Assembly (NCBI GenBank): GCA_010093605.1
Contig: MU004191.1
Coordinates: 604,816-668,815 of the forward strand
DNA: 64,000 nt
Direction of reading: 5' to 3'
Source of the DNA: Lophium mytilinum
Taxonomy: Eukaryota
The notes below the pieces were generated by a model that worked only from the letters and a program-made list of their open reading frames with translations, did not search any database and was not told the DNA's origin. Shown one piece after another: positions 5,937 to 45,300 of this stretch. Made by a program: the position numbers and the translations under genes. Position 1 is the stretch's first letter, and every line of letters begins with the position of its first letter.

Positions 5937-6684
5937 GGTCGCTGGAGGTCGGCCACCGCTGGACGGGCTGGTGGGTTGTCGTGCGGAGAAGGGCTTGTTT
6001 TGGAGACGTTGGTGGTTTCCATCGTTGTTTACTGAGGTCCTGCTTTGAGTCTAGCGTAAATTTGGAAGCGATGTCACGTGTGGGCTGCTAGCGCAGCTCT
6101 AAACTCGTCTCGATTCACCACCTCATCGAAATCCCCATCATCCCAGAACTCAGCCTTGTCCGTACGCTGCGATAATTGATCACCACTTTGATTGAAATAC
6201 GTGCCGTTCGCTAGTTTTCAGAATGCTAGCAGGCCGAGAGCTATCCATTAATGCGGCAGAGTTATCCGTCAAAACAGCCGCAGAGGGAATCGTGGAGAGT
6301 TCCGGAGCTGATCCTCTTACAGCAATCAGTCAATTCTTGCCCATGCTTTCATCCCGAGCAGCATCATAAGCTATACGCCTCCGTACTTTTCGATACATGA
6401 ACGCTATGATGGCAACTACTTTAGCCCAAAGCCATGCAGCAAGCGAGGCTGACATAGATGCTCACCATTCTTTGATGCACGACAGCTGTGATAAGAACTG
6501 CCACAAGCGAATCACCACAGGGCCAGTCAGACCCCGCATTCTGCACCGATCTACCGGCCCCCTCATTCTTCACCGGTCAGTTATCGAGGACTTTTACTCC
6601 CGCGCCTTCTTTTTTCACTCAAGGACTATGGAGTTCTAGTACTACCTTCAGCTACAGTTGTCGAATTTAGCTTGAAACGATAAG

Positions 6685-9036
6685 ATGGAAGAGCTCATGG
6701 AGATCCGAAATTACCTTTGGCTAGGATTGTCGTTAATAGCTTTGAAAGAAAATATGGACGAGCTCCTGCAATTAGAAAGCTTGATGGAGAAAGAATTTGG
6801 GTGGGCTGAAGACAGCCCTTCATCGATTTACACCCCGTTACCGACCCCGACTTCGATTCGCGTCCTAAAGTTGTCCAAAGACAGTGGACCAAACCAGCAG
6901 ATCATCTGTCACGTCAAGGTGGTTGACTTGGATCGCCTTCCCCAATATTCCGCACTCTCATATACCTGGGGCGACCCTGGAGCTGATCCCAATGATAATG
7001 AGCATCATCCATGCATTACCCAGAAGCCGGTGAATGGCCAATATGAGATTCTTTGCAATGGTCATCCTATCAGAGTGACCAAGAATTGTGTCTCCTTCCT
7101 CTACTCCCAGAGGTTTTGGGAAGGTTATCTCAAACGCAATCCCTCTCTGGGTCCAGACGCAATCAAAGATGCATCAATCGATTACCTCTGGATAGATGCC
7201 ATTTGTATCAATCAAGAATCACTCGAAGAACGTTCATCCCAGGTTCGGTTGATGGATAGGATATACAGACAAGCACAACAAGTTGTTGTTTGGCTGGGCC
7301 CTTCCGATTCGATGACTGATCCGGCCTTTAAAGCCATCATCGCAATGGCGGGTGCTCCAGTCGACGAACTTCACAAGCTGCAGGGAAGTAGGATGCTGGA
7401 TCCGGCGCCCTACAAGACACTTGGTATTCGCATGATCAGCAAACACGAATGGCAATCTATGAGAGCGCTCTACGAGCGCTCTTGGTTTTCGAGAGCATGG
7501 ACCCTTCAAGAATTCGTACTTGCACGTAAGGCGGTCATGTTTTGTGGACACGGCTTCATGAAAATGCAGTGGCTGTTGCTTGCGGCACAGAATACGATAT
7601 TACTGGGTTGGGACTCTCAATTGGGCATGCTTGGCAACGTGGAAGATACTCCTGAGAATACTTCCCTATATATGCAGGCGCATGATGCGTTCGTTTCGAA
7701 AGATACAGCTAGCTCTCTCCCCGGCAAAGACCAGAAGCGCCATGTCTTTACTAAGTATGGGACCTTGCAGACAGGCATACCTAGCCGCGAAAGGGATCTG
7801 GGAGTTCCAATTTCTCAAGAGTCTAGCATCCATACTTTGGTCTTGCTGTCTTTCCTGCAGCTTTCTCAAGGTCGAGTAAGCAAAGAGCGATGGTTAGCTC
7901 AGGAAGATACATTTCCACTTCAAACAGTACTCGTAGCGTCACGATCCAGGAAATGCTCCAACCCTGCCGACAAGCTCTACGCAGTCCTTGGACTTGTGCC
8001 TGAGGCGAGCTGGCAGTATCTACCTATCGACTACTCCATGCCGGTTGTCGAGTTGTATACACGTGCAGCCTTCGTCATGATTCGAGCTACGCGGAGCTTG
8101 AGTATTTTGTCTTATGTTGGGGATAAAACATTCCGACGGTACAAGGCTCTTCCCAGTTGGGTTCCTGACTTGACGCATCCCGGTTTGAATATGCCACTTG
8201 ATATCGGCAGTAGTCTCGAGGTACTTCTTCCTGGACGAAGAATGATGAGCTTCAATGCTTCCCGCGGTATGCGTTTTCATGTCAACTCACAGGAAATCTC
8301 ATGTGCGACCCTTCCAGTACGAGGCATTCACTACGATACTGTTCAAGCAATTGGAGATTTTGATTTTACTCGTTTGAGTCGTATAGAGCCATTGCTGGAC
8401 GTCATCGTAAGACTACCGCGAGATCGGCTGTGGAGAACGCTCCTTGCAAACGAACGTGTAGTCCACCAGATCGGAGAACGTCAGCTCGATGAGAAACCTC
8501 CGCATACTGCCAAGGAGATTGATGGAGAAGTTTTCCTATTTTTGTTGTCTTTGGAAACATGGTCTATGCTCTGCGGGCCGACCCACGAATCGCCTTCTGA
8601 TTCAGAACAGCCCCGTGTTGAAGATATTGCTCAACAGCAATATGATATCTACGAACAGATCGTGGGCCCCGAGCTGAACTCGATCCCCCGTTCTCTTTTC
8701 GTCGACGGCAAACAGCCACCCTTCATCAATCGGCTACAGTGGTGCCCGCCAGATACTGTACGTTCTCTATGCGAGGGTTTTTTAAAGTCTTTCGCTGCAA
8801 GATGGCAGGACAGGAGACTTTTCACCACCCAAAATCAGAAGCTAGGTGCTGGTATGCTCCCAACACAAGAGGGTGATGAAGTATGGGTGCTAGCGGGTGC
8901 CAAAGTTCCATATGTCCTTCGACCCAAGGACGATGCACAGTACGAACTGGTTGGCGAAGCCTACATGCATGACATTATGCATGGTGAGCTTGTAGAAGAA
9001 AGTCAAAGTGAAGTCAAAGACATCACATTGATATAG
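6685..9036 (+). CDS. HET-domain protein (HET-6-like), 783 aa, single exon
   Basis: HET motifs YSALSYTWG, LWIDAICINQ, QVRLMDRIY..A..VVVWLG, WFSRAWTLQE. HET-6-type C-terminus GDEVWVLAG..PYVLR..YELVGEAYMHDIMHGE. Confidence 0.92.
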   Translation: MEELMEIRNYLWLGLSLIALKENMDELLQLESLMEKEFGWAEDSPSSIYTPLPTPTSIRVLKLSKDSGPNQQIICHVKVVDLDRLPQYSALSYTWGDPGADPNDNEHHPCITQKPVNGQYEILCNGHPIRVTKNCVSFLYSQRFWEGYLKRNPSLGPDAIKDASIDYLWIDAICINQESLEERSSQVRLMDRIYRQAQQVVVWLGPSDSMTDPAFKAIIAMAGAPVDELHKLQGSRMLDPAPYKTLGIRMISKHEWQSMRALYERSWFSRAWTLQEFVLARKAVMFCGHGFMKMQWLLLAAQNTILLGWDSQLGMLGNVEDTPENTSLYMQAHDAFVSKDTASSLPGKDQKRHVFTKYGTLQTGIPSRERDLGVPISQESSIHTLVLLSFLQLSQGRVSKERWLAQEDTFPLQTVLVASRSRKCSNPADKLYAVLGLVPEASWQYLPIDYSMPVVELYTRAAFVMIRATRSLSILSYVGDKTFRRYKALPSWVPDLTHPGLNMPLDIGSSLEVLLPGRRMMSFNASRGMRFHVNSQEISCATLPVRGIHYDTVQAIGDFDFTRLSRIEPLLDVIVRLPRDRLWRTLLANERVVHQIGERQLDEKPPHTAKEIDGEVFLFLLSLETWSMLCGPTHESPSDSEQPRVEDIAQQQYDIYEQIVGPELNSIPRSLFVDGKQPPFINRLQWCPPDTVRSLCEGFLKSFAARWQDRRLFTTQNQKLGAGMLPTQEGDEVWVLAGAKVPYVLRPKDDAQYELVGEAYMHDIMHGELVEESQSEVKDITLI

Positions 9037-9495
9037 CCGCGTTGGTTTAACTATTTGCGTCTCTCTTCTCTACGTATCGCTCACGGAAACTATAGTCAGA
9101 GCGAGGGATTTTGCTGCTTCGGACCCCAGAGATAAACATTCGCGGTTCTAGCTTTGATAGAGGCAAGAGTATACTCCGCTTGATTACTCTCTCGTAACAG
9201 GTTCACTATGCATCGCTGCGAATGCAGTGTTGAAGTTGATAGCGAAGAAAGCCTCGCAAGGTGGCTAGGTTGAAGGTTTATCGTGTGATGGTGTGGTCGG
9301 TAATCGTGTCGAAACTGAGGTGGCTAAATATTAGTGAAGTTGGCGTCGAGGTTTATGACTATGGGGTTGTGGCGACGACTCTTGTAGGGAACCATGGAAC
9401 AATTGCAGACCATCTAGCACAAGCCATCAACCGAATGCTTTACCAAACGGCGCCTTGCTGCGTGAAAACGTTGCATTTTCTTGTTTCGAGGAACT

Positions 9496-12400
9496 CTAGC
9501 TCCTTTGCTCACTAGCCAATAACATCGTGAACGTATCTTCAAGGAAACTGACTAGCTCAGCCAATGTCTTCCCATCTTCTGTGACCGTCCCTTCCTTAAG
9601 TCCATACCAGCAGGGTCGAGGAGTCTCGTAGAACTCATGACTTTTGCAAAATTCCATATCGCCGTTGCTTTGCTGCCAGCTGCTGTAGCAATCAGCGCAA
9701 AGATCTGTGTCGATACAGTTTAAGCATCTGTATCTTGTGCCTCGCATGAACCCATCCAAAGACACACTGCAATTACTGCAGCGGTATGGCTGCACGACAA
9801 TATTGTTCAACGCTATTCCTTGTTCGTCGAATATAGCAGCGTATTCGTAGTAGCTGCGCCCGCAGATAATGAGACTGGAAGACAAGGCGGCTCGGCCATA
9901 ATGATGGCGCACCGTACAACAACCTCTCATACTCTTTAGAATATGCAAGATGGTTGAGTACAAAACTCGCTTATCACAATGGTCCACGTCGTAGGTCCTG
10001 ACGGCCTCTAAGGATGGGGCTATCTCGTCACGTTGAAGCGCGCGACCGATAAAAGAATCATGTTTTGCCCAGTAATGCTAGGTTCAGGTTACTTGCTTGG
10101 CCAGACTGGTTGAGGAGGATACTTACAATTGTGAGACCTTTAGAGCTTACCATGTTGATGTAGCTTCCGTCTTCTTGGAGTAGCTTTTTGATAAGCTTTG
10201 AACTTGACCTGTACAACGCCGCTACTTCGAGCACTGTGGAGACATTTGTACCTGAGCTGCGAACGCTCAAATCCGCACCTGAGTTTATCAGGAGTTGAAA
10301 TACTTCTTCATTGTTGTACTGCAGAGCTCGAAAGATTGGTATACCCACACAATATGGTGAGGGTATTCCATCTACCAAGGCTCCATTTCTTAGGAGATGC
10401 TGCGCAGCGTTTCTGAACCCGCGCGCTGCTGCAGTGCACATTGGACTGGGCGTAACGCGAGCATCGCAGTGCGTCAAAAGGCTTTGAAGGTTTATAGGGT
10501 CTTCCCTGGAAGTCGCGGCATACATATTAGCGGTCGTCCATCAATACTAAAGGAGGCAAAATCATGTAGGGGTACATTGTGGCCCTTCCTGGGTCAGATG
10601 CAGGAATAAACCGTGACCGTTCGTCAGCAAAACATGTTGCTGAACTTCCACCCTCGCGCTTGCAAACTTAGGCTCGAATGTATTGAGGATATTGACAGTT
10701 CTCATGCCAATAGCTGCAAATAACATCAAGTCCATAGACCTGGGCGTGAGCCAGACACCGTGACACTAGATAATGGCAAAGACATATACAAGTGTGATGA
10801 TCGTAACGGACCTTGCATCTATCTTTTAATAGTACTCACCATTCGAGTTGAAAGCGAAGGAACAGGTCAGCAATGTCATCGCTAATTGTTCCAATATTTA
10901 CTGTGCTGTAAAGATCATAGTCTTGTTGCATCGTGCAGCCATTCCAATAACACATTAGGGAGCATTGAATGACCTGCTGCACAAACCAGGCACTTGTATA
11001 GTTGGCTGCGTATTGAGCCGGAGGCTTCGTGTAGTCAATGATTGAGACTAATTGGCGGTATTTAGTTTCATCAGTGGGAAAATGGGATTCTACCCAAGGG
11101 CGTCTCATATCAAAGTCCCTGAACCGGTCGATAGGTACACTTCTGGCATAGGAGAAGAGAGGATAATCTCCTTCGTTGAGTCTCTTATTGAGTAGACTTT
11201 GTAACTCCAAACCAATCGTGGATACATATGTCAGTAGACACCCCATGACGTGTTGTTTGCTGGAGGCTTCCTGCAGGGCAAATCTGGCGATCTTATGTTT
11301 TTGCGTCGTGAGCCGGTTGCATAACAAGTACTCCTTGACAGAAAAATGAGCGAGGACGACGGTTCCATCCGCATCAACACGTAACAGGCTACCGCATAGA
11401 GCAAGGACTTCTTCGGTTTCTAGCAAACGCTCCTTGGCGTCGAAGCGGTCTTTCGCGGGATCAATGGCGATACTTTCAGCGAGCTCTTCTAAGCGCAAAG
11501 GACGTTCCGAGCCAACTAGCCATTTGAACAGTCGGAGAATGTGCTCATAATCCCCTTCTTTGATGTTTTCCAAAATGCGGTCATAGGTTTCATTGAGTCC
11601 TTCCGGGAGCGTCTCGAGTGCAGTCTCTAACGCTCTCTGTGTCCTGATTTCTTGTAAAACGTCAAGCTGGCACTGTATCCAGCGATACATGCCATCGGCG
11701 CCGGAAACGAGATCTTTTACGAGATGCTCTCGAGCAGGAGCCGGAAGACGACGTAGTCTGGGTATCTTTGTGAGTTCATTGCGGACATGTATTTCCATAG
11801 AGGGCTCAACATGCCTCGGAAGCATGGCAAAGTGCGGCTCAACCAACAGAGCTTGCCGAATATCGTATTCAGGTCGGCTTGAAAGTAGTATCCGACATTG
11901 TCCTTTGTTCCATGCTAGCCGACGCAACTTCTCGATATTTCTCAAGAGAGTGCATCGATTGGGACATTCATCGATACCATCGATGATCAAATATGTTACT
12001 TCGAATGACTGAGTGGCGGTCTCTTCCAGAAGCCCGATAAAGGTTTCAACCTCTGGAAAATCCGTACAGCGTTGGTGATATCGATCTCTCACTGCAGATG
12101 GAACTCGATCCATTTGTTCGACCAGCTGCCGCACTAGGGATCCTATGACACTTGTGACATCCAGAGTAGGAGGGTTAGCAAAGTCGCAGTAGTGATAAGC
12201 TATGGCCTTTGGAACAGGTCCAACTGAACACGAAGCTTGCAAATTGTCGATGATAGCAGAGCTTGCAATGGTCAATTAGCACAGGTTGAGATGTGAAGGT
12301 GGGAAGTGACACTTACACCAAGACAGTCTTCCCGGCGCCGCTAGGACCATGCAGCCAGATGAGATTCCCGTCGTTCACCCAGTCCACGACAGCCTGTTCG

Positions 12401-13236
12401 TGTAGAAACCAATCAGAAGTTCCCGGTTGCCGCAATGATGTGATGGCTATCTGCTTTGCTTTTGGGCTGAGGGACGATAGCCATTCTAAAATTTTCCGTT
12501 TCTCCTTAGGTTTCTCGATCTTCTTTCGAAGCCGTTTGAGTGCATTCTCTTCGCCTTCGCCATAAAGGAGGGGCATGAAGATGTCGAATATTCCTAGCAG
12601 TGAGTACGCCTTATCTTCTTCGCGTGTCGTCTGGCGCTTTCTTGCCCAGGATAATCGCTTTTCGATATTGAAATCGCACAGAGGAGTACCTCGCAGGGCT
12701 GGTATGTCGATGCCTGTTATTTCGTGGATCTGTTGCTCTAAACTTGCCTTATCGCCTAGATACATGCCTTCTTGAGAGAAGAACTCGACTGAACGTGGTG
12801 CAAGAAGCTCTTGAAGGGTCCAACCCCGGGTAAACCACTTGCTTCTCGTGAATGTCGGTTCACGGGAGAACTCGTCATCCCTGACCAAACCACCCGTTGA
12901 AAGGTCAGACAAATAGACGTAGCACCGTGTCGCCTCGTGATACCAGCGGAACATTGAGTTGATGGCTTCTGATAGCTCTGAGCTACTCGATTTGTCAATG
13001 CAGCACGTATCGACCCAGAACAGCTGCAGGCCATCATGCGCAGCTTGTTTTGCGCAAAATGTAAGCTTGCGATAGCCCGCCTTGCTCTTGCCTGTACTCT
13101 CTATCAAGTCTCTAAAGGTAATTTCTTCGTCATCCGCTCCCCAGATATGCGAGAGAATTGCATATTGCGGGATGTTCCTGCCAAAATACTCGACAAGGCT
13201 GAATTCGCCCTCATCTTTACATCGCAAAAGACGCAT
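9496..13236 (-). CDS. Fungal NLR: HET - NACHT - ankyrin - ZZ-type zinc finger, 4 exons
   Basis: HET (YAILSHIWG, FWVDTCCIDKSSSSELSEAINSMFRWY, WFTRGWTLQE); Walker A GPSGAGKT; Walker B LIIDGIDEC; AHFSVKEYL; ankyrin-like repeats; C-terminal CSNC...RYRCLNCIDTDLCADCY...HEF. Introns 12316-12262, 10839-10506 and 10126-10078 join the four ORFs in frame. Confidence 0.88.
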
Positions 13237-13545
13237 GAGGAGAGTATTGTTGGAGGGCTCTTTTCAGGGATAACATAAGAATAGATGTAGACAAGACGCG
13301 CATAGAGTCGAGCACTTAAAGAAGTGAGACTGTTCTGGCTAGAAGAACGAGTTGGAGATAGCGGGGCAGAATGCCGTCACAGCCAGGCTGTAGTAGACCT
13401 TTTTAAGTCATCTTTCTGCACCTAGCGACCTACACGCATTACAGTATCTTGGTGTAGACCAACCTTAACGTGGCGCAACGATTTGAGCGAAAGGCAGGCA
13501 GACAAACTCGGCACAACTCAAAGTGGAAGCCCACCGCAGCCTATT

Positions 13546-14020
13546 TGTCGGGTGCGAAATAGCGTAGAATCCTTGGCGGACTTTTTCGAGCTCCGCATTA
13601 TAAAATTCTATGTACTCGCTCCACAACACATTCTTCAGCACCGTGTGTAGTACTTGTATAGTATTTACCTAGGTATAAGAAGGTCTTTGCAGAAGTTTTA
13701 GGTTTTAAGATTTAGTTTTAGTTATTTTATTTAGGGTACAAGCCTGCAGGAGAAAATTAGACGCGACGAAGTTGCAAATGCGCTAGGTCGCGCTAATCTA
13801 GCGCATCTTGGCAGTTTTCTAGGCCAACTTCGCACTAGAATAACCCCTCTCCCTTTATATATTGGAGGCTGGAACTAAAGGGGCAAAGTTAACTATAAAG
13901 TAAGAATCTGCTGTAGAAGTTTTAAGACCGTAGCTTTTAATCTGTGTTAGAGCTCTTCGAAGACGTGATGCGGAGCTCGAAAAAGTTCGCCAAGGATTCT
14001 ACGCTATTTCGCACCCGACA
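13546..14020. mobile_element. MITE / non-autonomous DNA transposon with ~55-bp terminal inverted repeats (TGT...ACA)
   Basis: TGTCGGGTGCGAAATAGCGTAGAATCCTTGGCGGACTTTTTCGAGCTCCGCAT from 13546 is the reverse complement of 13968-14020 with one mismatch. Interior is AT/TpA-rich with no ORF. Confidence 0.88.
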
Positions 14021-14429
14021 AATTCTACCCTTTAGTTCTACTGCCCGACGTTTGCCCGCTGCGGTCGAGCACCGTCCGGAGAGGAATCAGGCTTGCCGAA
14101 ATTGGTAGTTGGGCGTTTTGATAACGTACCAGAGCACCTCAAACGGTACTATACAGGCGTACACCAGCACTCAGAGGCAGGAAGTTTGGGATCAGAACCA
14201 CGGCAGGCACTTTTTGTTCAATATACCTGGTAGACGACTTGGTCCAATATATTACTCCGCGGGGTTCTCAACGCTCAAAGTTAGCAGAGGGAGTCTCTAA
14301 GCATCCGAGTACTTAAGCGCGTACAGCTGCTGCAGAGGTTGCAATTCAGGTCATATCACGCCGTCAAGGTAACCATTCATTTCTTTTACCCTTGTAACCC
14401 TACAACATACATATCTAAACTTCTCTCAG

Positions 14430-16801
14430 ATGGTATGCAAAATATGCTTCCACTTCTCCCATACCCGCATCGGGTCCTTCGCCTTTCCGAAACTCCAGCA
14501 ATCTGCGTCATCAGGATGTCCTTACTGTTCTCTACTCGTCCGTAGCCTGGATGCGTTGCTCCACCTCTCAGAGATCGAGAAAGTTCAAATCTCCAACAAA
14601 CGCTCGGGAGAGTGGTGTCTTGCGGTCAATGTGACACTGCGCGCTGGATATCGTCCGAAGATTGGTCCCGTATTCGGGAAGATGTCGTCTGGGGCGCAGG
14701 AAGTCGTGCAGATATTTGCGCATGAAGGTATGAGATGCTGCTTTTTTAAATGAGAGAGATGCTACTCCCGTGATAGTCGGTCCAATGTAGCGAGTGTTGC
14801 CATGGAGAGGATTATAGCATTGATGCGACTTTTCGAGGAATCCTGAGTCTCCAAACTGACTCGATCATAGGCCACGGAAAGCCAGGAGACTGGGTCACAA
14901 CTCTGTACAACGTGCCAGACCCATGTTCCGAAGCATCGTTCCAGTTCATATCAGAAAGCCTCCGCAGCTGTCAAGAAACGCACGACTGTTCAGAAATGAG
15001 CGGCCAGCTCCTTCCCCGGCGAGCCGTTGATGTCGGCACGCCATCAAGTCCAATCCGCGTCGTCGACTACAGCTCGGAACTCGGTCCCTATGTTGCCTTG
15101 AGCCACTGCTGGGGGGATAACAAGCATGTTCGATTGACGTCGGACACCACCAGCTTCTTCCAAAACATACCCCTCGAGGTTTTGCCTGCGACTTTCAGCG
15201 ACGCGATTGAGGTGACGCGTAGGTTGAATTTAAATTATGTCTGGATTGACTCGCTCTGCATAATCCAGGACAGCGCAGAGGACTGGGAGATCGAGTGTGC
15301 CCGAATGGGTGACATATACCAGAATGCCGAGTTGACCATTGCGGCGACGTCTTCGCCGAGCAGCAGCAGGTCGTTCTTAAGACCGCCTGAAAAGATGAAA
15401 CAGCCAAGAGTGCAGGTTCCGTTTTGGAACAAAGATGGGAAAGAGTTCGCGCTACAGGCAGTAAGACCCCTCTCGTATCATTTCGATAACGTCGATTCGA
15501 CAGAGGGATATCTGAACAAGCGAGCTTGGTGTTTCCAGGAAGACATGCTCTCAAAACGACTTGTCAGCTACCAAAACATCGATATCAAATGGCGGTGTTC
15601 TGAGGGCCATATGTGCCAATGCGTAGGACCGAGTGTCAAGCGATCCGACTCAGCAACATCGGTTCGCACACTTCGCGACGAGCCGGAAGAGGAAAGTGTG
15701 AACACATGGCTGCAGGCTGTAAACGATTTCTCAGACCGAGATATAACTTTTGTTAGCGATCGACTGCCTGCACTCGCTGGTATTGCGACCGTATTTCACG
15801 AATCGTTTTCGTGGACGTATGTTGCTGGACTTTGGAAAGAGTGGCTCCTTCATTGTTTGTGCTGGAAATCCGACTATAGAGACCCGATTCTACCGGATCG
15901 CCTTCAGCCATTAGCACCCTCCTTCTCCTGGGCTTCGTCGCAATCCTCGGTCCTCTATGACCGTGCTGGCATGTATCTTGAACCGGTACAAGTGCCGACA
16001 AAGGTGCTCGCGGTCAGCAGCACTTTGAAGGGAGAGAAGAATCCGTTTGGAGAAGTGACTGGCGGGTATATTGAAGTGGAAGGGCCTTTGATAGAGGCGC
16101 GGCTTCGGTGTTCCGACACTTCAAGTTATCATGACTATTTCGTGGATTGCGAGCCACTTGGGGAGTGGAAGTTCTGCCCCGATACGCATCTAGCAAGACG
16201 CACAGTAGGTGGGGTAGCAGTAGCAGCTCGGTGTTCCGTTGGCAAGGTAGAGAAGCTTGAGGATGTTCGAGTTTGGATATTGTGTCTTGCGCTCAATTTT
16301 AGTGACATCAACGATTACACTATTGATGCCATTGCACTTCGTCCGCTCGAGGGTAACCTAGATCACTTCGAGAGAATCGGGTTCCTGGAAGACGGAGGAC
16401 CACAATTCATTTTAGATCACCAATGGTGGGTAGATCCCTCACAGAACTCGGCTCCTCCGGGAGACCTTGATTCCCCAAGACCCAACAATGCAGTCCAAGG
16501 AGATGAGGATACGTCAGATACATCAGAAGGATATGATTCACAGGCAGACGACAATGGGATCCAAGATGACAGCCAGTTATCACAAGAAGACGAAATTATC
16601 TCGGAGTTATCAGAAGGAAACTCCGCGGACGATGATAACGGTGATTTGTCAGAAGCAACAGAGGATGGAGATGTTCCGAAGAAGAGAGACCACTATCCAC
16701 CTGGAAAGCCTCTCACAATTGGGGGTAGGACCTATCATCCTTACAAGGCGTGGAAAATACTAACTTCGGACGTCGAACCACGTAGGATAAGGATAGTCTA
16801 G
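14430..16801 (+). CDS. HET-domain protein with N-terminal CxxC motifs and acidic C-terminal insert, 2 exons
   Basis: Exon1 14430-14727 (CKIC...CPYC); intron 14728-14870 (GTATGA..CTGAC..TAG); exon2 in frame with YVALSHCWG, YVWIDSLCIIQD, MGDIYQNA, RAWCFQE, DRLPALAGIA, APSFSWAS. Confidence 0.9.
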
Positions 16802-35216: not shown

Positions 35217-37226
35217 CGTGGCCAGGATGTTGAGGAAGACGCGAGTGCACGGCAAATTTCAGAGCTAGACCTGGCAAAGCCCCTCCTTCCGGTTGAATAA
35301 ATGCTGAGAACACTATAGCTGCTTGGCACAGTTTCGTTAGTTTAGTGTATCTATGCTATGTATCTGGTATGGCTAGCATCGTGCAAGGTCGGGGAATCAG
35401 ATTTTGCGTATATTAATTTAAGGTTTTGTCGGCATTTCAAAAGATACGACAGCTCCAATAAGTGTTCATCATGGTAGACCTCTGGCATAACGCGTCCTCG
35501 AGCAGAGACTCGAGGACAAGCTCGCAACGTGGCTGACTTACTTGGGAGGGTATTGCAAGCTGTAGACAGGCTTGAGGCACTGTGCCAATGTGGGAATGAC
35601 TGAGAGCGGGTATTATGTGGACTAAATTATGGAGGATAGATGATGATGGAGGGGATGTTGTGGGAGGTCAGTGTGGAGTTGAGATTTCGTGCCCAAGCTT
35701 GCCCCCGGACGACGCTAGGTCGGAACTCGGAGGCCGGCTGATCACGTGATAGCAATCTCGGCATGCCGTCAACTGGAGTATCCCCGAAGCCGATACTCAA
35801 GGTGGGGGAGGGGCGGTCGAGGGCGGAGATGGTGCTTGTTCCTGGAATCCATAGGGCATTGTGCTATTCACTGTGGGCGGCATGGGCCTGTGGGATCTGC
35901 TCAAAGTCGTAGAAACGCTCCAGTCAGGCTCAACGCCGGCTTCACTTGCTTGCGAAGGGAGACCCTGCCGCTGACCCTGTCGCGATGAATCTGGTGGGCT
36001 GGCTGGCGACGACCTCGGGATGGTTCTTGGGTATTGAGGGGATGCCCGCGCAGCAAGCGTGGAGTTGCTGGTATCAGAGTTGTTGGTATCATCTTGACAA
36101 TGCTCCCCCCGTGCTACCATCCCCCTTTCTCGAGGCCGACCGCATCGCCAGTCAGTGATTTCTTTGTCGATTACAAAGGCGCCGGCGCTGCGGTGCTTGC
36201 CGAAGCGCGGGGCTTGCCCAGGTGTTTCAAGTCGGCCCTAGCACGTCCCTCCAACAGCGGATCTGTAAGATGCAGACGGGCCAACAAGGTGGTCGCAGTG
36301 GTCGCAGGTCGCAGGCCTCCTCCACGCTGTCCAGCCCGTTCTGCTATCCAGCCGTGCGAATTGCGTGCGCGGGCCGCTCCCTGAGCACTCGGGCTTGCTC
36401 AGCATTCACCGACTCAGACGTCGTGGGATGGGAGGACTGCAAATGCGAACTGCCTACTACTGCCCTCTGTCTACTGCCTCCGCGAACAAGCCCACCTGAA
36501 ACGCCAATCGCCCTAGCTCGCCAGTTTATTATTAGAAGAACGCAGTGCAACCACCACACGCCCTCCACGACCACCACCGCTCTCCATCACCGCTCCAAAA
36601 CCAACTCCTACAGCCGTCTGCCCTTCACGACGAAACGGCCTGCTCCTCTTTGCCCCAACTGCTCCTTCGGCACCCCCTCGGCCGCCCAACAGCCTGCCCC
36701 ACGGCGACTGGGCAACTCTAAGCGCCCAGCCATTCCCACCCCCGGCCAGCGCTTCGGGACGGCGGTTTCCCAGCGAATATCCTCATTCCAGCCGCCTGGT
36801 TGTGCGCGCCGCCTGAGTTGCTTGTGCCGGCGCCCTGTCTTCCAGAACTTCTGGCGCTGCTCTTCTATCGATTGGCGATCTCCGTGCCCTATCCCCTCCT
36901 CCGCTTTGCGCCGCGGAGCCTCATCTCACCTACGCCCAACAGACCCAGCCGCCCGTCAGGTACAAGCCTCGACGGGCTGTGCTGTGATTCGAATACTTCA
37001 GCCCGGCATCTGCAGCCTTTGCGCGCGGCCCGCTGCTCGACACCCTCCTCCCGTCCATGACAAGCGCCCCGATCCGTTTGCGCCTTTCCCCCTTCTGAGT
37101 GCGCACTGCAACCTCAGGCGCGCCCCGAGCTGCATAGCGTTGCCCTTCTCGCCGCCTCCCGCTGCATAATTAATACGCCCAGACGCCCATTGTCGCGAAC
37201 TGCTGCACTTCGCGACCGAAAACCGC

Positions 37227-38801
37227 ATGCCCGACCCACCAAACTTCACCTATACACTCTCGGACGGACAAACAGCATCTGAAGAGCCGGAGCGCAGTCA
37301 GGAAAGGGAACACGTCCGCGGACGGCAAGGCCACACAAACATGGCTGCCGTCCTGTCGCCTCACAGCTCGACCTCACCTCCGCCTACTTCCTCTCCCGCC
37401 CCAGCGTTGCCTCCATTAATAACCTCGCCACCCTCCAAGCAGCGTGCTCCCTCGTATGCGAACAAGAGACTGTCGACCTTCTCAAATGCCTCAGCTGCGC
37501 AATCTGTCCGCTCCAGCAGACCACAGTCGACTGTGTTTCCACTCTTCCATTCAAGCTTGCCATACTCCCTAGTGCGCGACTATGCATACGGCCCCCTACA
37601 CCCGCTATTCTACGGCCCGCTACCCGAGCAGCCCTCAGACATCTCCACACCGGCCAGTGAAGTTAGTCGGAGGCTGTCAGATCCACCGCCGGTATGGGAT
37701 GGAGCTCGTGGGAGTTGGTCAGCAGGATCGTGGGAGCCTGGAGAACAGCTGCCGCAGACTTCGTATGCGGACGGGCCTCCATGGAGCGAAGATGAGGACA
37801 TACATAGTCCAGTCGTGACCAGCGCACGTCACAAGAAGCACAAGTCAAACATAGTGGACTTCGACCAGACCCGTGGCCGGAGAGGATTCGATCCTGGACC
37901 ACGAGCGTCCTACTCGGGCACGAACCGTGACGGTAGTCAAATCTACTATGTGAGCGAGCTTGACGAATCAGCCAATGGACCTGGCGGCGAATACATTACA
38001 TATCCTCCCACCAACCAGGAGCAGCCTGCGCCATCGCTTACAGTACCTACCTCAGACTCGCGGCGCGATTCTCATTTTGCAGCCTTGCTTCCTCGCCGTA
38101 CGTATGCCGACGCGGAGTTGGAAGAAGCTCCTGGCTATGCCTCAGACGAAGAGATGTCGGAGACTTCCTCCCCCGAGGAATTTTCTCAAGACGAGAGCCG
38201 CTTCTCGCGCGACTACCAATTCACCATTGCGTCGCCAGAGGAGGAAATGCATGGCAAGGCTGTTGCCTTGTTTGACTTTGCGCGCGAGAACGATAACGAG
38301 CTTCCGCTCGTCGAGGGCCAAGTCATACTTGTGTCCTATCGACACGGACAAGGGTGGCTCGTCGCGCAGGATCCAAAGACAGGCGATACGGGTCTCGTGC
38401 CCGAAGAGTACGTGCGCCTGCTCCGCGACATCGAAGGAGGGTGGAGCGGTTTGATGAACGGTGACGGCGCATCAGCCAACGACATCATGAGCCCCGTATC
38501 TGCTGGCCCAGAGGCCAAAACCCCTACACAAGCTGATCACCGGAGAGACTTGAGCGGCCACAGCGCCATGGGCGAAAAGTACACCCCCGTCATTTCGACT
38601 TTTTCGACGAGTTCGAAGGACCTCCACCGGTATCCGCGGGACTTGCTCGGCACCCCAACGAACGCAGAGGGCAGCCCATTCGCCAGACGCGCAAGCACCA
38701 GTGAAGATATCAAGGGTGGCAAAAAGTCGGACTCGGGGCCCATGGAGGGCTTGGAGGAGACACCAGAGCCCGTGGAGGCGATAAAAGATGAGGCTCGGTG
38801 A
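37227..38801 (+). CDS. NBP2: SH3-domain adaptor, Nbp2-like
   Basis: LVRDYAY..HPL.YG motif and SH3 domain AVALFDFARENDNELPLVEGQVILVSYRHGQGWLVA...TGLVPEEYV. Confidence 0.8.
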   Translation: MPDPPNFTYTLSDGQTASEEPERSQEREHVRGRQGHTNMAAVLSPHSSTSPPPTSSPAPALPPLITSPPSKQRAPSYANKRLSTFSNASAAQSVRSSRPQSTVFPLFHSSLPYSLVRDYAYGPLHPLFYGPLPEQPSDISTPASEVSRRLSDPPPVWDGARGSWSAGSWEPGEQLPQTSYADGPPWSEDEDIHSPVVTSARHKKHKSNIVDFDQTRGRRGFDPGPRASYSGTNRDGSQIYYVSELDESANGPGGEYITYPPTNQEQPAPSLTVPTSDSRRDSHFAALLPRRTYADAELEEAPGYASDEEMSETSSPEEFSQDESRFSRDYQFTIASPEEEMHGKAVALFDFARENDNELPLVEGQVILVSYRHGQGWLVAQDPKTGDTGLVPEEYVRLLRDIEGGWSGLMNGDGASANDIMSPVSAGPEAKTPTQADHRRDLSGHSAMGEKYTPVISTFSTSSKDLHRYPRDLLGTPTNAEGSPFARRASTSEDIKGGKKSDSGPMEGLEETPEPVEAIKDEAR

Positions 38802-39637
38802 CAAATCTTCTCGTCTACTTCTATTACGACGCCACGTTTGGACTCTGATGTTGCATACCTGTGGCTGCATAACGATATAACCGCATTCCGGCGTCTTCGA
38901 GTCGTTTCCCTCGCTCTTGTGGCTAGCCGGTGCTGGCTAACTGAGCGCTCTCTTCAACACATTCACTTCACACACCATGTTTTAACCCTGTTTCAACCTC
39001 CACTTCTCGCGCTTTCTACTAACTCCCTAAGAAGAGCGTTCAAAGCGCATACTCCCTGTTCGCTTCTTGCATCTCGCTGCCCTAAAGACCTCCACTTTCG
39101 ACTGCCCCGTTTTATGTGAAGTCAGATCTTCACCTTTTTGTTTTTGCTTTCTTGAATGCTGTTTTTAGCGATGGAGGGGCAGTGTGTTATGCCGGATCAC
39201 GAATCTCTGTTGCTGTTTGTCTGTCTGTCCGACGCAGAAGGTGGTTTCACGCACGCTATGCGGGACATGATAGGAGGGATGATCTTGGATCGATGGATCG
39301 ATAAACTTGGGCTGCATTTGACGGAAGCGGTCTGCGCTGCCTACGTACTTGTGGCATGGGGATATGGACGTCGTAGTGTGTATTTGTGGTCAACTGAGCG
39401 CCTCTGCTAAGTGGGGCTGCTCGAAAAAGAAACAAGTTCATCTCTCCATATTGTTGTCTCTCGCAGTACTTTTTCATCGTGCATGCTGTATTCGTTACTT
39501 TCCGCTGGTGAAACATGTTGGTGCACGTTGGTATAGGGTCCTCGGGCTCTTCCACCGATAGTGCGGTGAAATGGTAGTCGAGGGCACGTTGATGAAGGGT
39601 ATATATTTCAGGTTATTTTGGCCACCTATCACTAACA

Positions 39638-39890
39638 AGCAGGTTTACCAAGTTGGTCCCGCTCTCCCTCCGAGCCCGATGCACCGCCCCTCACCAACCG
39701 AGCCGGCCGACGCCTTCGCCAACTCGAGGAACCCTGGGTTCGAATCCCACCTCGAGAATTAGCCATTACGGTACATGCAATAAGCGTCGATTGATACGTG
39801 AGTATGTGAACCGGGCTACGGAGTAAACCCTCGTTGGGTTTCTACACCTTCCATCGGGAAGGTGGTCTTTTGCTCTTTTAATCTTTTTTT
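39638..39890 (+). ncRNA. Candidate RNA polymerase III-transcribed structured ncRNA of unknown class
   Basis: TATATATT 39600-39607; A-box-like TTTACCAAGTTGG 39644-39656; perfect B box GGTTCGAATCC 39737-39747; several nested helices; T7 run 39884-39890. Confidence 0.55.
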
Positions 39891-40218
39891 GGTCTCTGTA
39901 TCGTTGTATCGCAGAGGCTGCCAATCAACACAAGCCTCTTCGCCTTCTTTGTTCCTCTAGCACCGTGTCCCAACTTTTACATCCTGATCTAGGCACGAGG
40001 CCGCGCAAGTTACTCAAGAATCTCCCAAACCATACTTAGCAGAGGCCTGATATCGAGCATAACACATGTAAAATCTAGACCCAGGCTAGTAGGAATGCCA
40101 TCGCAGTAGCACTCCCTGCTGGTTTCCCAGAACTACGCAACCAGCAACCCAACACCCTCACAAACCGCAGCACGACATCCCCAGCACGCCATCCCACCCT
40201 CCCAGAACCATCACCATG

Positions 40219-40937
40219 CTATTCCTCCTCTAGCACTAACATCCTCTCCACCCTCCTCACCTTCTCCACCCACTCCCCATCTACCACTCCCCCCTGCTCC
40301 AGATGCCTCTCCCCCAACTTCCTCACAATCGCCGCCGTCTTCTCCCACATCTCCTGCTCCACTGGGTAGGTGGCCAGTACTGGGTGGGTAACTCCCTCCT
40401 CAATCCTCCTCCGCCACCCCTCCATCACCCCCTCGACCTCCCAAGCCTCTTTCCGCCACCACACCTCCGCCTCCTCCACGCTCTCCCGCGCCATCCACTC
40501 CCGCCACCCCATCGTGTGGTAGAACAGCAGGTCCCTCCCATTCCGCGCCGCCGTGCGCGCACCGCTTTCTCCACCACACTGCTCGGCAGCGTGACGCCAA
40601 GGTGCGCGTGGACGAGCTGCTGCAGGAGAGCGATTTGGGGCGCGGACCAGGTGGTCGGGCCTTGGTTGATGTTGGTGTTTTGGTTGTTGGCTGGGTTGTG
40701 GAAGCGGAAGCGGGTTGGGCCCGTGGGGTGGAGGCGGGGCAGCCGGTGAAGGTGCGCGCGGCGAGGGAGAGGCAGGCGATGAGGGGGTTCTGGGGAGCGA
40801 GGTCAGTAGAGGGTGGAGAGAGACGGCGGAGTGGCTTACTGGTGCTTCTTTGGGGTCGCAGGATGCGAAGTTTGGGGGGCGTTTGAGGGGGAGAGGGGGG
40901 TCGGAGGGGGTTGTTGAGGCTGTGTGAGGTTTTCCAT
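40219..40937 (-). pseudogene. Orphan gene with apparent frameshifts (pseudogene or assembly errors)
   Basis: Canonical intron 40839-40790 (GTAAGC..CTGAC..CAG). Protein-like segments lie in different frames, separated at a C-run (~40890) and a GCGCGC run (~40557). Confidence 0.4.
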
Positions 40938-41647
40938 CTTGTGCGAGAGGTTGTTGGAAAGTGGGTTTCTGTGAGGGTGGTGCGCGTGAGAAGGAGTTAA
41001 GAGCAGAAATTGTGAGAGGTGGGTGAAGTGCTATGACGACGGTAAGATTCGTCTCTAACTTAAAGCCTCATGCGATTTAACAGGTGCTAGAGGAGATAAC
41101 AAAGACGAGGAGGCTTCTTTAGCTTAGCTTTAATTTGAAGGTGATTTACGCTCCCGAAGCCTTCACATTTTACCTCTTAAATCATGCATAGGCATGAGGG
41201 GCCTGGAGGGGCTTAGTCGGCGAGTAAAAAGCACGGAAATGAAGTCTCACTTTAGAGTGTACAGCTACAAGGTGACATCATGGATCAAGATACACTGTTC
41301 TGCCACTGATTGGGGTGCTCCAATATGTTTTCGGTAATCTGAAGCGACTAACAGCATGGCTCAATGCGTACATCCCTTCGCCACTGCCTGAGGTGACCCG
41401 GCAAGCTTACCTATTGTTCCAATCAGCAAAGTCTGGTAATTCTAGAAATCATTGAGGAGCTTCAAACAGCGGCAGACAGAGTGCAAAAACCTCAGTATCA
41501 CGGCGTTAGATGAAAGACACGTATTTGTGAGATCAATTCCTAGCCTATAATAACTGCATCCATCTAAACTCTAGATTCTCAAACATTGACCAAAAGCACC
41601 TAGAAAACGTTGACTCCCTCTCCAATCGCTACACCAGCTCGGAGTTT

Positions 41648-42346
41648 CTACCAGCCCCCAAGGTCCCTCACGGGGTTCACCGGTGTAGCCGTCAACCCCA
41701 ACCCCAACGGCTCCCAAGTGTAAGGTTCCCGCCACTCGGTCGCCTCCGGCACCACCTGCGGCCTCTGTTCCGAGGGAGAGGACTCCCGCAGGTACCGAAT
41801 TCCCTCTTGAATACGGCTCCGAATCTCCTCTTGAATACGGCTGATTGGCACCACCTGCGGCCTCTGTTCCGAGGGAGAGGACTCCCGAAGGTACCGAGTC
41901 TCCTCCTGAATACGGCGGATTAGATCATCATCCTCATCATCATCATAAACTTCTTCTTCGTCCTCTTCCGCCGAAAACGACTCCGGCTCCTGCTCCATCA
42001 TCACCAGCATCTCCTCCACGCTCACATCATACACATACTCGTACATCTCCGCCCAGAAGTTGTCGTTGTTCTGCAAAATCTGCGCAAACAGCCTTAGAAT
42101 CGTTAATTCATCCAAGTCGTCGAAGCCGGGGACGGGGCCGCCAGCCAGGGAGTCGAACATTAGGTCGATGATGTCGAAGTATTTCGCGGACACGCCCATC
42201 CGCGCGGCGAAGTTGTCACGGGTGAGAGAGGCTAGGAAGAGGGCCTCGTTGTTGGCGTAGCCGGCTTCGATACTTTCCACCGCGATGAGAGTGGACATCA
42301 TTTTGGAGATGCCAGTGCAGAGGATCACGTCGTAGGCGGTCTCCAT
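41648..42346 (-). CDS. Orphan acidic protein with internal 33-aa duplication
   Basis: ATG in AAAATGG context at 42346, ~232 aa; IQE..RYLRESSPSEQRPQVVP occurs twice with a 99-nt period. Confidence 0.6.
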   Translation of the reverse strand: METAYDVILCTGISKMMSTLIAVESIEAGYANNEALFLASLTRDNFAARMGVSAKYFDIIDLMFDSLAGGPVPGFDDLDELTILRLFAQILQNNDNFWAEMYEYVYDVSVEEMLVMMEQEPESFSAEEDEEEVYDDDEDDDLIRRIQEETRYLRESSPSEQRPQVVPISRIQEEIRSRIQEGIRYLRESSPSEQRPQVVPEATEWREPYTWEPLGLGLTATPVNPVRDLGGW

Positions 42347-45300
42347 TTTGGTAGTTGGGTTTGGTGGTTTTGGTGGTTTTGTGAGTGTTGTGAGTGTTGT
42401 GAGTGCTTGAGTGTTTGAGTGTGCTTGAAGGGTTTGTGGCTTGGTTTTCAAGTGCTTGAGAGTACTGGAGAGTGCTTGACCGTTGCGTAAGTGCTTGAGC
42501 GGCTTTGGAAGTATGTGAGTAAGTGTACGAAGGAAGATGTCTAGGACGAGAGGACAGCTCGTATTTGTAGTAGTGCGCTCTGATGCGCTCTGATGGCTCA
42601 ATTTGTCTTTTTGGTAGCGAAAACCCATTTCCGTGGTTGTCCATTATCGCTCTGATTTTGCACGATGAAGCCGTTCCATGGTTCGTAAGATCGAGAACAT
42701 CGTCTTGGCGGTACGAACAGCATTAAGAGAATTTGCTATTGCTTCTATAAGAGTTTTATTGCACTAAGATATGCGGTCGTACCCTATGAGTACGTGGCTG
42801 CAACTTAAGGACGTTCCATATATCATGTAGTGGATTGGTGCGGAAATGCTTCATCAGGAGTAATCCTACGTCTAGAAGAGACCCAGCCACGTATTACACT
42901 CGCAACCGTAGATCTTAGTACTACGATGATCATTTCAAGTTGAAGCGAGCCACTTCGGGCTTCTTCGGCGTAGTGCAACTTGAACGAGTTCGTTGCTTCC
43001 AGTTCCCGATCAAAGACCCCAAGCGGCGTTTGGTACTTTTCTTTCGATTGAAATTTTGCAGGCTCTTGGTGACGGAGGGCTGCTTGTAAGCTATACAAAT
43101 TCAGCTGTCCTCGAAATCACCGACTTTTTCTTGCGGCTCAGTGGACATGTTTGTAGATTTCGGGGACTGGTAGTCCTTGAAAAGGGGTAAAGGGCACCAA
43201 GAACAGTGACAAGCTGCTATTGCCACACTGTATCAACAAGATTCTACGCATAGTCAAGAGCAAACCAAGTATATTTTGATCTCTGTCAGGTCTTATAATT
43301 TGTTTATGTTCGTCACGGAGCTTTCAAATCAGCCGTGAGCAAACAAGTTTTTGGTGGCCCTTTCGACCCTGCGGGAGTGCTTCGACCTACTTTTTGATGT
43401 TCCAAGACCCCTGCCGTTTACCTCGATCCCGCTTCATATCCTAGTATCTTCCGTCTCAAGTCTCATGAGGCTTCTCGCTTAGCCGTCGCGAGTCCTGCCC
43501 TTACTGCTGTCCTTCTGCGTCACCACCTAGCAACCAGTGCCCTCAATAATACCGCTCTCCAACAAGACCGCTCTCAGATGCAAACCGCCGGCTCCACGAC
43601 TTTCCGCCAGATTCCACCAGATTCCATTGCCAAGGCATTAGCCACTAGCCCACTCACAGTCAAAGTACAAATACTCGCCGGCCGCCCCTCCGTCGTCCTT
43701 CGCTCCAACAACAATCACCACAACAGAGAGAGGAGAGCTGACTGGGCTTCGCGATGGAAGCTGGGTCCGCTCTGGGTCATCACACTAACCTTCACCAAGT
43801 CTCTTCGCGTCTTCGACATCTCACCGACCATCTCACCAATGTTTTGAATGTGCACCGCCTAGTGGCACAAGAGGATACTTTTTTGTAAGTCCCACCCACC
43901 ACCTCCTCTTCCGCCCTACCTTCGCCAACAGCACCTCTAGACCTCGGAGAGGCTCCGGCTTCAAGGTCTGTCAACCCATCCATCTCTCTTCTACTGACAG
44001 TGCGAAATCATCTCTCCTATGGGCGAGCAGCCTTTCTCGATCCAAGTCGACATTTTGGGGCCTCAAAACCTCAAGCCGCGCGCTGGCCAGCGCCTTGTGG
44101 AGATTCTTACCCACCTGTGGAGTTTCTAACCCAGCGGAACTACAAGGAGGCGTGTGGATTGTTCGATGATGGCTACTAGTGTCGCTCATTACTGCCTATG
44201 TTCAATAAACCTAATCTTAAAAAGCCGTAAGGTATGTCACGCATTCAGATAGCTTGTCCATGCGAATCGTACTAATCAAGACATCGTCAGACTCCTTCTC
44301 CAGGAACCTAGTCAAAACTCTCTGAGGGATAGAGGTTTTCGCCTTTGCTTTCCGGCACTGGACATTTCTCTGGAGGCTTGGGGATGACGGATTGGCTGCG
44401 GACCCCTTCGACTTGAGATTGGATCTTCGACATCTTTGTAAGTGCTCCCGCTCCCTCCTCGGTGGTGCAGTCCAGGCAGCTCTCTCTCTCTTGGTTTGGT
44501 AGTTGTAGTTTTTGTATATAGCCAATGCAGATTCCTCTTCATCATTCTTGTCTTCTACTTGATGTGACTTCCCTTTAAGTAAACATGATCATCTTCGCCT
44601 TCGCCTCTACCAAACATCCTCGATTCTTCATTCATTTGTGCCCCATCCTCGACCAAACGTGCCTTTGCCTTTACCAAACCATACTACCGCTGCTTCCATC
44701 CTCCCTCCTCCGCGCTCGTGTTACACCCATGCTCCCCCAATACTCCGCAGAGCGCATCGTATACTCGCCGGCTCCGACGCCCACCTGAATGCCACCACAC
44801 CGCAGCGCCGCAGCTAACAGCGCGCAACCAACCTAGTTCGCCGGGGCCTCATGCCTGAATCAGGGGATATCCAGCCACACGAGAAAGCAAGATCAGGGAA
44901 TGGATAACATCCTTGAACGCTACAACGAAGTCTATCGAGGTGGAACATGCAGCACTCTTTCTCTTCCCCCTCCTCTCTGCCTACTCTTCCGCAGGGCGCA
45001 TCCTTCCCGCCTCGCGCGCAGCCTTGCCGTTTACTCTGCAGCCCTTCTTTCCCTTCGCCTCCTCTCTGCTTGCTCCATCAGGTGCCATCGCCATTTACTT
45101 TGGGAGCAGGCGGGTACTCCCCACCACGCCGAGCTCGCACGAAACCCGTCCTCGTGTCGATCCACACTCGCCATCACCATAAAACAAAAACAGAGAGTCC
45201 ACCACGCCGAACGACAAAGTCACCGCCAGTACTTTCGCCCAACCAGCTTGCCCCATCCTCGTAGTAGTACACAGTCGCCCTCTGTATTCTGAGAAGATGG

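Follow-up and report, generated by a model that had tools for sequence, protein, structure and literature searches.

The window, by which we mean the whole 64-kb stretch of DNA that was analysed, is gene-rich and of the type found in filamentous ascomycetes, and its long open reading frames (ORFs) include those for HET-domain proteins, Suv3, Ssu72, Sec1, GH115, P450 and others. The element described here lies in an intergenic gap of about 2.8 kb. Upstream of it, an SH3-domain gene occupies 37227-38801 on the plus strand (Pfam SH3_9, E 5.5e-10) and its stop codon is about 830 nt away. Downstream, a minus-strand ORF at 41648-42628 is without Pfam match. Within 39600-39890 there is no ORF of 80 aa or more, and the unit is short (about 262 nt) and non-coding. 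Neither a reverse transcriptase nor a LINE was found in the 23 scanned ORFs among the 37 of at least 220 aa in the window.

Two other parts of the window deserve a word. Positions 40100-41100 are rich in G+C (up to 0.685) and show a sharp flip of the GC skew, from about -0.69 (40100-40600) to about +0.65 (40600-41000); this segment carries short C-rich direct repeats, without inverted repeat, and a stop-to-stop ORF of 282 aa on the minus strand (40219-41067) that is without Pfam match. Positions 6676-16801 hold three HET-domain ORFs (6676-9036, plus strand; 12313-13263, minus strand; 14777-16801, plus strand), one of which runs on into an NPHP3_N / NACHT-like ORF (10836-12275, minus strand). 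This region looks like a heterokaryon-incompatibility or NLR-type gene cluster.

A first-pass annotation had listed in the intergenic gap a series of motifs and helices. All of them are present in the sequence where they had been placed, and all the helices are reproduced in the MFE folds of 39640-39890 and 39630-39890. The parts of the element are as follows.

39585-39628, plus strand: upstream segment with the TATA-like box TATATAT (39600-39606), present in some copies and missing in others
39629-39890, plus strand: repeat unit of about 255-262 nt, coinciding with the transcription unit predicted for Pol III; alignments of other contigs start at 39629 and end at 39890, 39891 or 39895
39645-39656, plus strand: weak A-box-like motif TTACCAAGTTGG, matching 7 of 9 specified positions
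39668-78 and 39812-23: outer enclosing helix, CTCCGAGCCCG / CGGGCTACGGAG
39708-13 and 39784-89: inner enclosing helix, CGACGC / GCGTCG
39723-39756, plus strand: tRNA-like minihelix with a 7-bp acceptor-like stem, a 5-nt bulge, a 4-bp T-stem and a 7-nt T-loop (CTCGAGG at 39723-29 pairs with CCTCGAG at 39750-56 over TGGG-TTCGAAT-CCCA)
39737-39747, plus strand: exact B box GGTTCGAATCC, putative TFIIIC site
39785-39824, plus strand: variable internal segment, with insertions or apparent deletions in other copies
39825-39841, plus strand: 3' hairpin 1, AAACCC / GGGTTT
39845-39864, plus strand: 3' hairpin 2, 8 bp with loop ATCG
39884-39890, plus strand: run of seven T (T7), where the repeat has its 3' edge; putative terminator for Pol III

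The A-box-like motif and the B box are about 80 nt apart, and the T7 run follows the B box after 137 nt. The very start of the unit (39629-39642, CACTAAC...CAG) resembles a fungal branch point followed by a 3' splice site; no joint is seen there in the runs examined and the resemblance is probably a coincidence.

Signals and folds compared with chance

The perfect B box claimed at 39737-39747 is indeed the sole match of the consensus GGTTCGANTCC in the 64 kb, both strands included; at least one match occurs in 12 of 100 shuffles. The T7 run is the only one on the plus strand of the window (the two strands together have six overlapping matches, in four places). Local folds are also unusually stable. 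The MFE is -15.6 kcal/mol for the minihelix (39720-39760), where z is -2.85 and 1 of 200 shuffles is as stable, and -21.6 kcal/mol for the 3' double hairpin (39822-39868), where z is -4.07 and 0 of 200 shuffles are as stable. The exact B box, the plus-strand T7 run, the minihelix and the two 3' hairpins are thus beyond chance.

The same is not true of the remaining signals. The A-box-like motif reported earlier does exist, with its 7 matches in 9 positions, but an equal or better match turns up in 1523 of 5000 90-nt stretches taken at random from the window, and it stands at background level. The whole unit has an MFE of -84.0 kcal/mol and ranks 88th among 425 windows of the same length after regression on G+C, and its minus strand folds more stably (-103.5 vs -84.0 kcal/mol). 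Hence, being highly structured is not distinctive of the unit as a whole, whose shuffle z-score is only -2.62. We have discarded global structure as an argument, since the fold of the whole unit is ordinary for its background.

The region had been said to carry no signature of a known RNA class, and our searches with Rfam 15 and ARAGORN agree. Over the whole window the Rfam 15 covariance models give no match at gathering score, and over 39000-40500 and 39600-39900 they give only junk matches (E 4-10); U6, RNase P/MRP, SRP, 5S, the snoRNAs and the rest of Rfam 15 have no covariance-model match. Nowhere in the window does ARAGORN predict a tRNA, and even at E 10 the element has no match to the Rfam tRNA model. 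With these two negative results and no cloverleaf with D and anticodon arms, a tRNA gene was rejected. The likeness to tRNA is limited to the minihelix formed by the T arm and an acceptor-like stem, and a tRNA-derived head is not found. As for other classes of elements, there are no inverted repeats of 14 nt or more in 39400-41300, and so no terminal inverted repeats of that length, and by eye we see no LTR ends (TG...CA), Helitron ends (TC...CTRR) or introner-like splice sites at the edges. A scan of metagenomes for the A-box and B-box stretches of the element, separated by a variable gap, returned nine loci, none of them similar to the element by blastn; we rejected them as relatives and consider them chance matches.

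Copies elsewhere in the genome

Public sequencing runs were compared with the window, among them a DNA run (X1) that may come from the sample behind the window itself. In X1, the single contigs flanking the element have depths of 166.1 (upstream) and 158.5 (downstream). Inside the element the summed contig depth rises to 1289.4 (39612-39745) and 2306.6 (39746-39879), 7.8 and 13.9 times that of the flanks, although summed depth of this kind does not give a copy number. The contigs that come from the locus itself break inside the element, ending at 39688 and resuming at 39857. Contigs of 14892, 7036 and 4068 nt, which otherwise lie elsewhere, end or begin inside it with 2-6 mismatches plus gaps. 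The flanks are unlike one another on both sides: loose ends diverge before 39629 (two contigs, agreement 0.73), behind 39890 (two contigs, 0.67) and behind 39895 (two contigs, 0.77). The differing 3' flanks and the breaks of contigs in the element imply at least four other loci, each in unique DNA. No second copy exists within the 64-kb window, which shows that the repeat is dispersed and not tandem.

Positions 39629-39890, together with the upstream TATA segment in some copies, therefore represent a single member of a dispersed repeat family, about 260 bp long and low in copy number. At least five loci belong to this family, and the summed contig depth hints at about 8-14, a figure that is no copy number. 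The first-pass annotation had named many dispersed copies as the sign of a SINE, and such copies are seen here, both in the excess of depth and in the at least four other contigs with differing 3' flanks.

The edges of the repeat are informative. The 5' edge varies among copies (39596 or earlier, 39611 and 39629). One X1 contig aligns from 39596 and includes sequence upstream of the predicted start, and a loose end before 39611 resembles, by eye, the window back to about 39585, including the GGGTATAT motif. The common 5' edge, 39629, falls 23-29 nt past TATATAT (39600-06), and the 3' edge is the T7 run. In yeast U6 and in fission-yeast Pol III genes, TATA-assisted transcription by Pol III starts at just such a distance, so that here the start would fall 23-29 nt past the TATA box. 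With edges at the predicted start and stop, the repeat is the predicted transcription unit. A retroposed Pol III transcript should show such a coincidence, and so, just as much, should a gene family that conserves nothing except the unit. The summed depth is greater in the 3' half of the element than in the 5' half, a pattern that would be expected of 5'-truncated retrocopies. Target-site duplications were sought in this copy, where the best alignment of the flanks reaches 13 against 12.4 +/- 2.1 in shuffled sequences, and 193 of 500 shuffles are as good.

Relatives and variation among copies

The repeat family also occurs in at least one related organism. Run X4 (organism C) differs from the window at 33 sites in 770 nt of the SH3 gene (about 96% identical) and has a contig of 266 nt on 39682-39891, with 24 differences and 9 gap letters, which then continues into unlike sequence. 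The flank contigs of X4 and X5 end before the element. Run X3 (coded organism B) matches the window without a difference across 37200-39447. At least seven of its pieces fall on the element, among them four contigs of 950-1985 nt with an end or a start in it. That X3 is RNA is only a guess, no run being on record as such, and even in that case such contigs would show no discrete Pol III transcript. None of X3, X4 and X5 covers 39478-39611 or anything beyond about 40014. The contigs over the SH3 gene stop at 39447 in X3 and at 39398 or 39399 in X4 and X5, and the DNA run X1 continues. These stops may mark the 3' end of the SH3 gene mRNA, some 180-230 nt before the repeat, which is at most a hint.

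Copies differ from the one in the window by many insertions and deletions. In others 7 nt are missing at 39674, CAG is added after 39679 and 6 nt are added at 39748-49; there are 21 gap letters at 39784-91, with insertions at that place in one X1 and one X3 contig. Loose ends behind 39764 seem by eye to rejoin the window further downstream, and this reading suggests longer deletions at about 39785-39824 in some copies. That segment holds the 3' strands of both enclosing helices. Hence, the nested helices proposed earlier do form in this copy but are not conserved across copies, and they are not a feature of the family. Hairpin 2 varies in a milder way: other copies have A>G at 39860, by which a U-A pair becomes U-G, and carry one more G in the loop after 39855. 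Read by eye, these changes are neutral for pairing, which is weak evidence. An X3 copy (loose end before 39839) has at the place of hairpin 1 a different sequence that, again by eye and weakly, is also self-complementary. The richness in indels and the excess of depth in the 3' half are more in keeping with an element that moves or decays than with an RNA gene under constraint.

Origin of the repeat

With moderate confidence, we consider the element a dispersed short repeat of the Pol III type, most likely a tRNA-related SINE-like retroposon with a T-rich tail. Starting from the motifs, repetition, dispersal and edges that we observed, we infer its transcription by Pol III, followed by reverse transcription and integration. 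TFIIIC would bind the exact B box (39737-47), to which the weak A box (39645-56) may contribute, and TFIIIB would sit on the TATA region (39600-06). Transcription by Pol III would begin near 39630 and terminate in the T7 run (39884-90), giving an RNA of about 255-260 nt with two hairpins at its end and a U tail, and the family would have spread via this RNA. Edges at the predicted start and stop, unrelated unique flanks and numerous indels all make it most likely that the family spread through its own transcript. As in SINEs, we find an internal B box, a short non-coding unit, interspersed copies with unrelated flanks and a 3' T tail. On the other hand, the upstream segment occurs in at least two other copies, which counts against retroposition, as a transcript starting at 39630 should not carry it. 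Also against a SINE are the failure to find target-site duplications in this copy, an A box at chance level, a 5' part that is not recognisably derived from tRNA and the lack of a LINE partner in the scanned ORFs. We thus regard the status of SINE as likely but not proven.

The upstream segment in some copies would also fit a reading of the copies as genes. They might form a non-mobile, multi-copy family of functional Pol III non-coding RNA genes, in which selection or gene conversion keeps the unit and its TATA box and the flanks have drifted, rather as with the 5S or tRNA genes that lie dispersed as families in filamentous fungi. The TATA segment common to some copies does lie at the same distance from the unit in each; the substitution and loop insertion in hairpin 2 are neutral for its structure, one copy has, by eye, a different self-complementary sequence in place of hairpin 1, the local hairpins are well beyond shuffles and the family is present in the related organism of X4. 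We nevertheless find this somewhat unlikely. Many indels remove or displace the 3' strands of both enclosing helices and functional RNA gene families are usually far more uniform than these copies; moreover, the global fold is not unusual and Rfam has no match. A more specific form, which we hold to be very unlikely, is that of a lineage-specific set of functioning genes that encode a Pol III RNA some 260 nt long, whose minihelix would be recognised by RNase P, RNase Z and the CCA-adding enzyme, the RNA being cut into a 5' piece, the minihelix and a 3' RNA with two hairpins. MALAT1/mascRNA is the model for such cutting at a tRNA-like minihelix. If true, minihelix-guided cutting would be a route of small-RNA production that is not known to be described in fungi. 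The reading of the first-pass annotation, a unique gene, present as a single copy, whose product is a structured Pol III RNA belonging to a new class, has for it the lack of Rfam matches and a coherent set of promoter-like signals. Its layout of TATA box, B box hairpin and T7 run holds; its single gene of unknown class is hardly tenable, given the diverged copies at several other places in the genome and also in a relative.

The element might instead be a short repeat of another class that captured a piece of tRNA: a repeat dispersed at the DNA level, part of a larger transposon or a solo terminal repeat, in which the B box and the T run would be relics without a promoter role, or an extra-TFIIIC site only. 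This would fit the chance-level A box, the heterogeneous 5' edges and the lack of a target-site duplication. It would also fit the very high false-discovery rates of SINE predictions made from signals alone: in the excerpts of PMC5408816 used here, calls based on structural signals are mostly false unless full-length copies exist that are multiple and interspersed, and candidates are often subregions of larger repeats. Here, multiple interspersed full-length copies of the kind those excerpts ask for are found in part. Other copies, on three contigs, adjoin 4-15 kb of assembled sequence and so are apparently not inside large repeats, and the absence of inverted repeats of 14 nt or more in 39400-41300 and, by eye, of TG...CA or CTRR ends speaks against such a repeat. 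A 3' edge exactly on the only plus-strand T7 run and a 5' edge 23-29 nt past the TATA box are hard to account for without Pol III, and we regard a captured fragment as unlikely.

Comparison with known systems

Few SINE-like elements have been documented in fungi, and annotation usually misses them. Among Pol III genes, yeast SNR52 and RPR1 carry their A and B boxes upstream of the body of a non-tRNA RNA that ends at a T run, and both are single-copy. The element resembles them in having its B box before a predicted RNA body, here 137 nt before the putative terminator. Yet SNR52 and RPR1 are single-copy genes for a C/D snoRNA and for the RNase P RNA, whereas no such RNA was detected here and the unit is dispersed. 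The extra TFIIIC (ETC) sites of S. cerevisiae are isolated B boxes outside tRNA genes. An exact B box outside a tRNA gene is shared with them, but here the repeated entity is an entire unit of about 260 bp with a T run at its end, which does not fit an ETC site consisting of an isolated B box.

Among retroposons, the plant Au SINE, of the tRNA type, combines an A box and a B box with a short 3' poly(T) (excerpts of PMC4223381). On that description, it shares with the element a short non-coding unit, a Pol III promoter of the A/B-box type, putative in the element, towards the 5' side, a 3' T run and dispersed copies near genes. It differs from the element in that the latter has a fungal host, few to about 14 copies, some 80 nt between A box and B box, no target-site duplication in this copy and an upstream TATA box in some copies. 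The comparison concerns layout alone, and a relation in sequence is not expected.

The closer parallel in host is AfuSINE2 of Aspergillus fumigatus, which the excerpts of PMC5063351 used here describe as tRNA-related, with 1-5 copies of 140-493 bp and target-site duplications of 4-14 bp. By that account, AfuSINE2 has heads that a relaxed tRNAscan finds, as well as its target-site duplications, whereas the element here shows neither, and the tails differ, an ACT repeat in AfuSINE2-1a and a T7 run here. By the same account, the two have in common that they are fungal, tRNA-related and low-copy, with Pol III promoter boxes and a location in gene-rich regions. Copies adjacent to genes could serve as TFIIIC-bound boundary elements, and a family with a T tail, an exact B box and no more than the remnant of a tRNA minihelix would be one more case from which to learn how Pol III retroposons emerge and survive in fungal genomes that are compact and rich in genes.
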